IMG/VR virus record: IMGVR_UViG_2579778797_000017
Direction: 5' to 3' (one strand)
DNA: 25,683 bases
From: a virus
Taxonomy: Duplodnaviria; Heunggongvirae; Uroviricota; Caudoviricetes
The position numbers and the translations under genes were made by a program. A model generated the notes under the pieces. The model did not search any database. It saw nothing but the letters and a program-made list of their open reading frames with translations, and was not told the origin of the DNA. Of this stretch, positions 25,169 to 25,683 are shown piece after piece; position 1 is the first letter of the stretch; each line of letters starts with the position of its first letter.

Positions 25169-25194
25169 GTCCGAAGGATCGCAAACGATGGTAT

Positions 25195-25683
25195 TGAACC
25201 GCCCCGGGGTTCCTGGAGAGTATTTTATCTGTGAACTCAGGCTGCCAGATCATTGTTTCCGATAGAAGCATAATAAGCTTTTTCTGCTTCTGCCGGAGGA
25301 GTATGGCCCAGCCTTTCCAGCAATCGTCGATTGTTATACCAGTCCACCCACGTGAGTGTGGCCAGTTCCACTTCTGCACGGTTTTTCCAGCTCTTACGGT
25401 GTATTACCTCCGCTTTGTAAAGACTATTGATGCTCTCCGCCATCGCGTTGTCATACGAGTCGCCTGTACTTCCTGTTGATGCCAGTAATCCGGCTTCCTT
25501 AAGCCGCTGTGTGTAGGCCAGCGATACATACTGAGAACCTTTATCACTGTGATGGACCGTGCCGGACGGTCGACGGGCCCATAACGCCTGCTCCAGTGCA
25601 TCCAGCACGAATGTCGTTTCCATGGACGATGAGACCCGCCATCCCACGATGTATCCGGCAAACACATCAATGATGAACGCCAC
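25195..25683 (-). mobile_element. IS3-family insertion sequence, partial (runs off the window end); terminal inverted repeat at 25195
   Basis: Terminus TGAACCGCCCCGGGGTTCCTGGAGAG... starts at 25195 (IS3-family ends begin with TGA); OrfB stop lies 42 bp inside. Possibly IS629-like, but I cannot confirm from memory. Confidence 0.7.
25237..25683 (-). CDS. IS3-family transposase OrfB (integrase-core / DDE domain), C-terminal 148 aa; 5' end beyond the window
   Basis: Motifs [10 protein letters not shown] (second Asp of the DDE triad) and [16 protein letters not shown] (catalytic Glu region), both typical of IS3-family OrfB; ORF is open to the window edge. Confidence 0.85.

Follow-up and report, generated by a model that had tools for sequence, protein, structure and literature searches.

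An IS629/IS1203-related element probably interrupts the large terminase gene of a Qin-type prophage of Escherichia coli, with a predicted block to DNA packaging

The stretch of prophage DNA analysed here (the window, 25,683 nucleotides in length) carries near one end a large terminase gene, terL, whose open reading frame begins beside the terminus of an IS3-family insertion sequence (IS). The question raised by this locus is whether the gene has lost its 5′ part or has been split in two by the element, and what either event would mean for a prophage whose head and tail genes are open. A preliminary description, made from the letters of the sequence, had taken the gene to be 5′-truncated and the prophage to be probably packaging-defective.

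By its integration in ydfJ and its synteny with K-12 Qin genes, the window prophage is identified as a full-length version of Qin, the prophage that is cryptic in K-12. The prophage end and the junction with the host occupy positions 1-3212, where the collinear annotation of E. coli STEC409 and K-12 MG1655 places the 3′ part of ydfJ (1-1284, minus strand), ynfT, ydfK, and pinQ (2622-3212, plus strand). The morphogenetic genes downstream of terL lie at 3310-23369 on the minus strand and are all open, as judged from gene calls, Pfam searches of the source contig, and the STEC409 alignment; they encode a gpW-like protein, the portal, a ClpP-protease/capsid fusion, a decoration protein, head-tail joining proteins, the tail tube, the G/T chaperones, the tape measure, M, L, K, I, J, Lom, the tail fibre, and TfaQ. 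In STEC409, where terL is intact, the order runs ydfJ, ynfT, ydfK, pinQ, tfaQ, the lambda-like tail and head module, terL, a DUF1441/nohA-like gene, and the lysis genes, and on the far side of these stand a Q-like antiterminator gene, relBE, an O-like gene, cI/cro-like genes, dicB, and genes for an exonuclease, an excisionase, and an integrase. Window positions 1-25194 align with STEC409 in one piece at 99.71% identity, with a single indel of 1 nt in the intergenic region between ydfK and pinQ (window 2454), and the IS is the only structural difference between the window and the prophage with an intact terL. Most of the nucleotide differences from STEC409 (61 of 72) fall within window positions 5000-8000, which hold the tail fibre gene, lom, and the start of J, a clustering suggestive of recombination or diversifying change in that segment. 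Among the 5426 complete E. coli genomes, 1027 contain at least 80% of the 25-kb region, with identities of 98-99.7% for the top matches listed. The K-12 Qin prophage shares with the window the integration site in ydfJ, with ynfT, ydfK, pinQ, and tfaQ on one side, and has nohA, ydfO, gnsB, ynfN, cspI, and rzpQ on the other side, as in this prophage type, but it has lost roughly 20 kb, reaching from inside stfQ to nohA, terL included, whereas the morphogenetic module of the window is complete, and any disabling of the prophage there would be due to the IS alone.

The 3′ portion of terL, recognised as a gpA-family large terminase gene by its Pfam domains and its identity to an intact copy, lies at 23360-25194 on the minus strand and comprises 2 nt of codon 89, codons 90-699, and the stop codon. 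When the list of open reading frames is compared with an intact homologue, the 602-amino acid reading frame (23360-25168, minus strand) is seen to begin at the internal Met98 of terL. Its C-terminal gpA endonuclease domain is complete (GpA_nuclease 1-294 of 294, E = 3.1e-86), and its match to the Pfam GpA_ATPase profile is restricted to positions 59-247 of 247, with positions 1-58 absent. A motif search of the translation found no Walker A sequence ([AG]x4GK[ST]), and the N-terminal terL motifs GPARTGKT, FVGPAR, and PYIIEPM are found in none of the six frames of the window. The intact homologue WP_000507036.1 (E. coli strain 190) has 699 residues, with the Walker A sequence GPARTGKT at residues 72-79, and covers GpA_ATPase profile positions 2-247; the 602-residue frame is identical to its residues 98-699 at 601 of 602 positions, and the part that is missing is the N-terminal one with the P-loop. 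The retained Cys/His cluster, the nuclease-like C-terminus, and the lack of a P-loop had all been recognised in the preliminary description and are borne out, the cluster being a pair of CPHC motifs, located by regular expression at residues 151 and 185 of the translation (24707-24718 and 24605-24616, minus strand, together spanning 24605-24718). No NCBIfam model matches terL, and no solved structure is detectable for it by sequence. The closest familiar counterpart is phage lambda, whose gpA has the same two-domain architecture of GpA_ATPase and GpA_nuclease and whose genes follow the same order of a small-subunit-like gene, terL, a gpW-like gene, and a lambda-family portal gene; the window reading frame differs from lambda gpA in being without ATPase profile positions 1-58, including Walker A.

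One reading of this shortened frame is that it represents a natural short terminase that receives its P-loop from a separate protein, a proposal with nothing in its favour beyond the existence of the reading frame itself. Homology to intact terL runs on past the ATG for another 26 nt and ceases only at the IS end, and the intact relatives are single 699-residue proteins, and at the level of homology these two observations together refute it, leaving it practically no chance of being correct. The 5′ region of terL adjoins a DUF1441 gene in several thousand complete E. coli genomes (3747 when any match is counted to a terL 5′ query that also includes tfaQ sequence). Because the intact copies have 699 residues and their 5′ region adjoins the DUF1441 gene, there is neither a terminase that naturally starts at this position with its ATPase elsewhere, nor an intact N-terminal ATPase in frame upstream, where the IS end abuts terL at 25194/25195. 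Two database entries that might seem to show short terminases are of no help: a 602-residue protein on an ENA contig is uninformative, the contig merely starting 2 nt before Met98, and a 540-residue terminase call in GCA_000627235.1 reflects only an alternative choice of start. A search of both strands of 24900-25683 found no sigma-70-like promoter able to drive the 3′ fragment of terL.

The element next to terL is represented in the window by its last 489 nt (25195-25683, minus strand, in the same orientation as terL), delimited by matches to genomes and by its inverted repeat. It contains the C-terminal 148 codons of the OrfB transposase, with the DDE/rve core, at 25237-25683 on the minus strand, running off the end of the window. 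This fragment matches the Pfam families rve (8.7e-19), rve_3, and rve_2, and scores 163.7 bits against the NCBIfam model NF033516 transpos_IS3 (cut-off 160), with the match covering only the C-terminal third of the profile (236-369 of 369). The 489-nt piece has matches, annotated as IS3 family transposase, in 4144 of the 5426 complete E. coli genomes; it is 100% identical to a copy on plasmid NZ_CP012501.1 and, over these 489 nt only, approximately 94% identical to copies labelled IS1203 by PGAP. Since assignment to the named isoform IS629/IS1203 calls for about 95% nucleotide identity or more, and the comparison is with PGAP-labelled IS1203 copies over 489 nt, we term the element IS629/IS1203-related. 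A complete relative in E. coli ECCHD184 is 1312 bp long (positions 5165-6476 of its locus), is flanked by a 3-bp duplication, GCA, and is annotated with a programmed frameshift and a pseudoknot; the 5′ two-thirds of the window copy lie outside both the window and its contig. The IS end, TGAACCGCC, lies 27 nt from the ATG at 25168 with which the terL reading frame opens; from its first base, 25195, the right inverted repeat reads TGAACCGCCCCGGGGTTCC, within the longer stretch TGAACCGCCCCGGGG... The left end, as it reads on the left-junction contigs described below, is TGAACCGCCCCGGGAATCC, and by our count 25 of the 28 terminal nucleotides of the two ends agree, giving imperfect terminal inverted repeats with 5′-TG...CA-3′ ends. 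The earlier placement of an IS3-family element against the terL frame, with its terminal repeat 27 bp from the start and its OrfB on the same strand and running off the window, is thus sustained by the break in identity at 25194/25195 and the transpos_IS3 match.

The identity of the DNA to intact terL stops at window position 25194, inside the codon for Tyr89, and across the right junction the sequence is GGCGGTTCA/ATACCATC. Over 12,324 nt the window matches the end of contig JJLO01000111.1 (GCA_000627155.1) without a difference (100% identity), and the sibling assembly GCA_000627235.1 has the same right junction, with one SNP in 3.5 kb. Not one of the 5426 complete E. coli genomes has the junction, which is accordingly rare and young, and an exact search in one genome per species did not find it; the six complete-genome records with at least 80% cover have an IS elsewhere, in or next to the DUF1441 gene. 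That the source contig ends in repeated DNA would be compatible with an assembly artefact, that is, a chimeric join made at a repeat, but the junction is common to two separately assembled sibling genomes, a matching left junction exists in independent Logan assemblies, and the flanks overlap by 3 bp, which is what real transposition gives, so that an artefact is extremely improbable.

The window reveals a junction and not a truncation; it cannot show whether the 89 codons at the 5′ end of terL have been lost. Beyond the window the source contig has a further 249 nt and then breaks off in repeated DNA, inside an intron of the IS; because it does not reach the far side of the element, the left junction was predicted instead. 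For a simple insertion with a 3-bp duplication, as in the ECCHD184 relative, the expected sequence is terL codons 1-89, ATA, and the IS left end, namely ...GTCTATA/TGAACCGCCCCGGGAATCC, encoding a product of 98 amino acids ending in ...GWIVYMNRPGNPGD. The exact predicted product (MGFSS...GWIVY+MNRPGNPGD) is present in a collection of 15 billion proteins and is located on two Logan contigs (ERR3329306_312 and SRR1186797_251), on both of which it is preceded by genes for a lysozyme and an Rz-like protein, a cspI-like gene, gnsB, a DUF1398 gene, and the DUF1441 nohA-like, small-terminase-like gene, and both of which stop 31 nt into the IS. The left junction on these contigs reads GTCTATA/TGAACCGCC. 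STEC409, the reference that best matches the window, is also 99.98% identical to the contigs. On a reference with the uninterrupted prophage, the window alignment ends at 37193 and the left-junction contigs reach 37191, an overlap of exactly 3 nt (ATA), the signature of simple transposition; such an event would have left in place the two halves of terL together with the small-subunit gene and the late region upstream. The right-hand copy of the target-site duplication lies at window 25192-25194 (ATA on the terL sense strand, TAT on the plus strand), and the duplication is seen on both sides when the window is paired with the left-junction contigs, the left side being taken from these other assemblies.

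The competing view is that terL is truly truncated, codons 1-89 having been removed, either in place of a simple insertion or subsequent to one, by an IS-mediated adjacent deletion or by recombination between IS copies. It gains something from the contig stopping inside the intron within the IS, with the far side unseen, from the evidently numerous copies of the IS and of the intron in this genome, and from the known capacity of IS3-family elements to generate adjacent deletions (PMC8860574). The predicted 98-residue product is, moreover, recorded from Logan assemblies only and not from the NCBI assemblies with the right junction; three attempts to link the left-junction read sets to the right-junction assemblies found no link, and exact matches to the tail fibre, the tape measure, and the orfB fragment of the window came from the two NCBI assemblies alone. 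Against it stand the exact reciprocal junction with a perfect 3-bp duplication in public read-set assemblies and the 99.98% identity of the left-junction haplotype to the very reference that best matches the window, and a second, unconnected insertion is unlikely to have hit the same nucleotide with the same orientation. We infer that the left junction belongs to the same genome as the window, and terL is probably interrupted by the IS rather than 5′-truncated. A true truncation we regard as unlikely, and equally so the form of it in which the small-subunit gene and cos would possibly be lost as well and the left end of the IS would abut unrelated DNA. The preliminary description is thus upheld in that the retained frame starts past Walker A, and amended in that the reciprocal junction makes the gene look interrupted; extension beyond 25683, which it had proposed, stops after 249 nt in the source contig, but the other IS end, the ATA duplication, the 5′ part of terL, and the small-subunit-like gene are all present in the read-set assemblies.

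The element has in turn been interrupted: approximately 25 nt beyond the window, the 3′ end of a group II intron divides its orfB gene. The 3′ end of the intron is recognised by Rfam RF00029 (64.9 bits) at positions 137-223 of a 225-nt segment of the source contig that starts approximately 25 nt beyond 25683. The same junction between IS and intron, 100% identical, adjoins ltrA in complete genomes; of the 5426, 1353 have a match that spans at least 80% of the junction query. The assignment to group II introns therefore draws on evidence from outside the window, that is, on the domain V/VI RNA match and on ltrA next to identical junctions in complete genomes. The intron E.c.I4 has been described as homing into the transposase genes of IS629, IS911, ISEc16, and ISEc31 (PMC3522654). 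The intron here likewise sits within an IS3-family transposase gene, and its target matches the published description; it differs in lying outside the window, and the name would be applied by target description and not by sequence comparison.

The account that we consider likely is as follows. An IS629/IS1203-related element of the IS3 family would have transposed into codon 89/90 of terL, in a lambdoid prophage of the Qin type that lies at full length in the ydfJ gene of E. coli, duplicating 3 bp (ATA), and the copy on the source contig would carry the group II intron in its transposase gene. The insertion would part the first 89 codons, with the P-loop GPARTGKT, from the remainder of the ATPase domain and the nuclease domain, and neither piece of terL would be expected to drive ATP-dependent translocation of DNA. 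The P-loop is now found on the 98-residue fragment, which covers GpA_ATPase profile positions 2-51. Large terminases require the Walker A lysine for ATP-driven translocation, and since the P-loop is severed from the rest of the ATPase and from the nuclease, a packaging defect is predicted; from what is established about terminase ATPases it is plausible that the prophage is unable to fill its heads. The defect could, however, be complemented in trans if another prophage in the cell supplied a terminase. Upon induction, heads and tails would be expected, but no DNA-filled particles. That heads and tails may still be made is suggested by the open downstream genes and, by analogy, by the late transcripts found in an induced stx2 prophage downstream of its IS629 insertion (PMC7430833).

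The preliminary description had also asked whether the tail module might persist as a tailocin-like or domesticated unit. In its stronger form this proposal would have the structural module kept as a domesticated producer of tailocin-like or GTA-like particles, with loss of the terminase being adaptive. Every downstream tail and head gene is indeed still open, and late transcription past an IS629 insertion in another prophage (PMC7430833) would permit it. A tailocin, however, would be a tail module without capsid, portal, and packaging genes, and here the portal, ClpP/capsid fusion, decoration, and head-tail joining genes, the protease included, are intact beside the tail genes. The module is, furthermore, 99.7% identical to copies with an intact terL, and the absence of the IS allele from 5426 complete genomes leaves no time for, and no sign of, selection on a new role. 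Domestication is accordingly very improbable, and nothing found here speaks for a tailocin-like unit.

The insertion of the IS is, we infer, recent, since the module still shows 99.7% identity to copies in which terL is intact. Both halves of terL and the duplication are intact, so precise excision of the IS would restore the gene and the lesion is probably reversible. An IS-excision enhancer, IEE, promotes the excision of IS629 (PMC9943667), and high-frequency excision of IS629-type elements is described where the enhancer is present (PMC9943667; PMC9397093). The nearest parallel is provided by IS629/IS1203 insertions in the lambdoid prophages of pathogenic E. coli, EHEC among them, for instance the IS629 insertion into stx2 (PMC7430833); these involve the same group of IS and the same kind of host element, and which likewise inactivate a gene of the late region; the present case differs in that the target is a Qin-type terL and the IS copy carries a group II intron. 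A 3-bp duplication is seen here both for the insertion in terL and for the copy in ECCHD184.

In E. coli, prophage genes are commonly disabled by IS insertion, and the interruption of terL is probably best seen as a new instance of this well-known kind of event, an ordinary, recent, and probably reversible crippling of a prophage. Taken alone it carries little weight, and its value is as a clean example, with one identifiable lesion in an otherwise intact and widespread prophage.

Three IS-free deletion alleles in other E. coli have as their left end GTCTATA, the left flank of the IS insertion site. The smallest has lost approximately 1.12 kb inside terL, the second (17 contigs) has lost approximately 21.7 kb into tfaQ, joining at window position 3468 with the entire morphogenetic module gone, and the third reaches into a different tail-fibre gene. 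In each allele a TA stands just before the partner sequence and repeats the two bases with which the left flank ends, giving a 2-nt microhomology. These alleles were found with a single N-terminal query of approximately 90 residues, mostly within one cluster of fragments of 60-107 residues that also holds the 98-residue product, so the end points recovered are biased toward the region of codon 89. The alleles joined at TA fit IS excision with adjacent deletion and microhomology-mediated joining (PMC9943667; PMC8860574), and excision with adjacent deletions that depends on IEE is on record (Kusumoto 2011, as cited in PMC9943667). The likeness to IEE-dependent excision (PMC9943667; PMC8860574) lies in the three IS-free alleles ending exactly at the left flank with the TA microhomology; the difference is that no IS is seen in the deletion alleles and that their upstream haplotypes are unlike the window lineage. 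These haplotypes differ from that of the window lineage by 5-6 SNPs in 744 nt, so that independent insertions at a hot spot, or later recombination, would be needed to connect them. It is therefore a tentative suggestion, and one that we consider doubtful, that the IS-bearing terL is the precursor state of a recurrent route to loss of the morphogenetic module in Qin-type prophages. If it were true, the terL site would be a hot spot for insertion of IS629-type elements, and cryptic prophages of the K-12 Qin kind would be made by IS excision and not by slow decay; if the link to the deletion alleles holds, there would be a testable path from active prophage to remnant, consisting of an insertion followed by excision with flanking deletion. 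The Qin deletions of E24377A and K-12 were considered as related events and set aside, their end points lying elsewhere and being unrelated to the codon-89 site. E24377A presents another Qin deletion allele, in which a terL remnant of 238 amino acids stands directly beside a full tfaQ (NC_009801.1, 1755599-1756315) and copies of IS66 lie upstream of a shortened DUF1441 gene.

Other lesions were encountered in the same neighbourhood. In E. coli ECCHD184, and in related matches in O145:H28 and O157:H7, IS629/IS1203-type copies lie in or next to the DUF1441 small-terminase-like gene, at sites just upstream of terL in other prophages, and the terminase region seems to have been struck repeatedly by copies of this type. 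At terL codon 89 itself, three loci from other E. coli assemblies carry a TAT-to-TAA nonsense change; this allele, found on at least 24 contigs, gives an 88-residue product followed by a terL remnant of 419 amino acids, and because the remnant is only this long, the copy carries further damage downstream. Finally, three N-terminal terL fragments (P0007, P0008, and P0042) break at or next to the sequence ...VVQM (codons 102-103, equivalent to window positions of approximately 25150-25155) and after the break run on into differing sequences, in one case into the gpW-like reading frame, and codons 102-103 may thus be a second rearrangement hot spot in terL.
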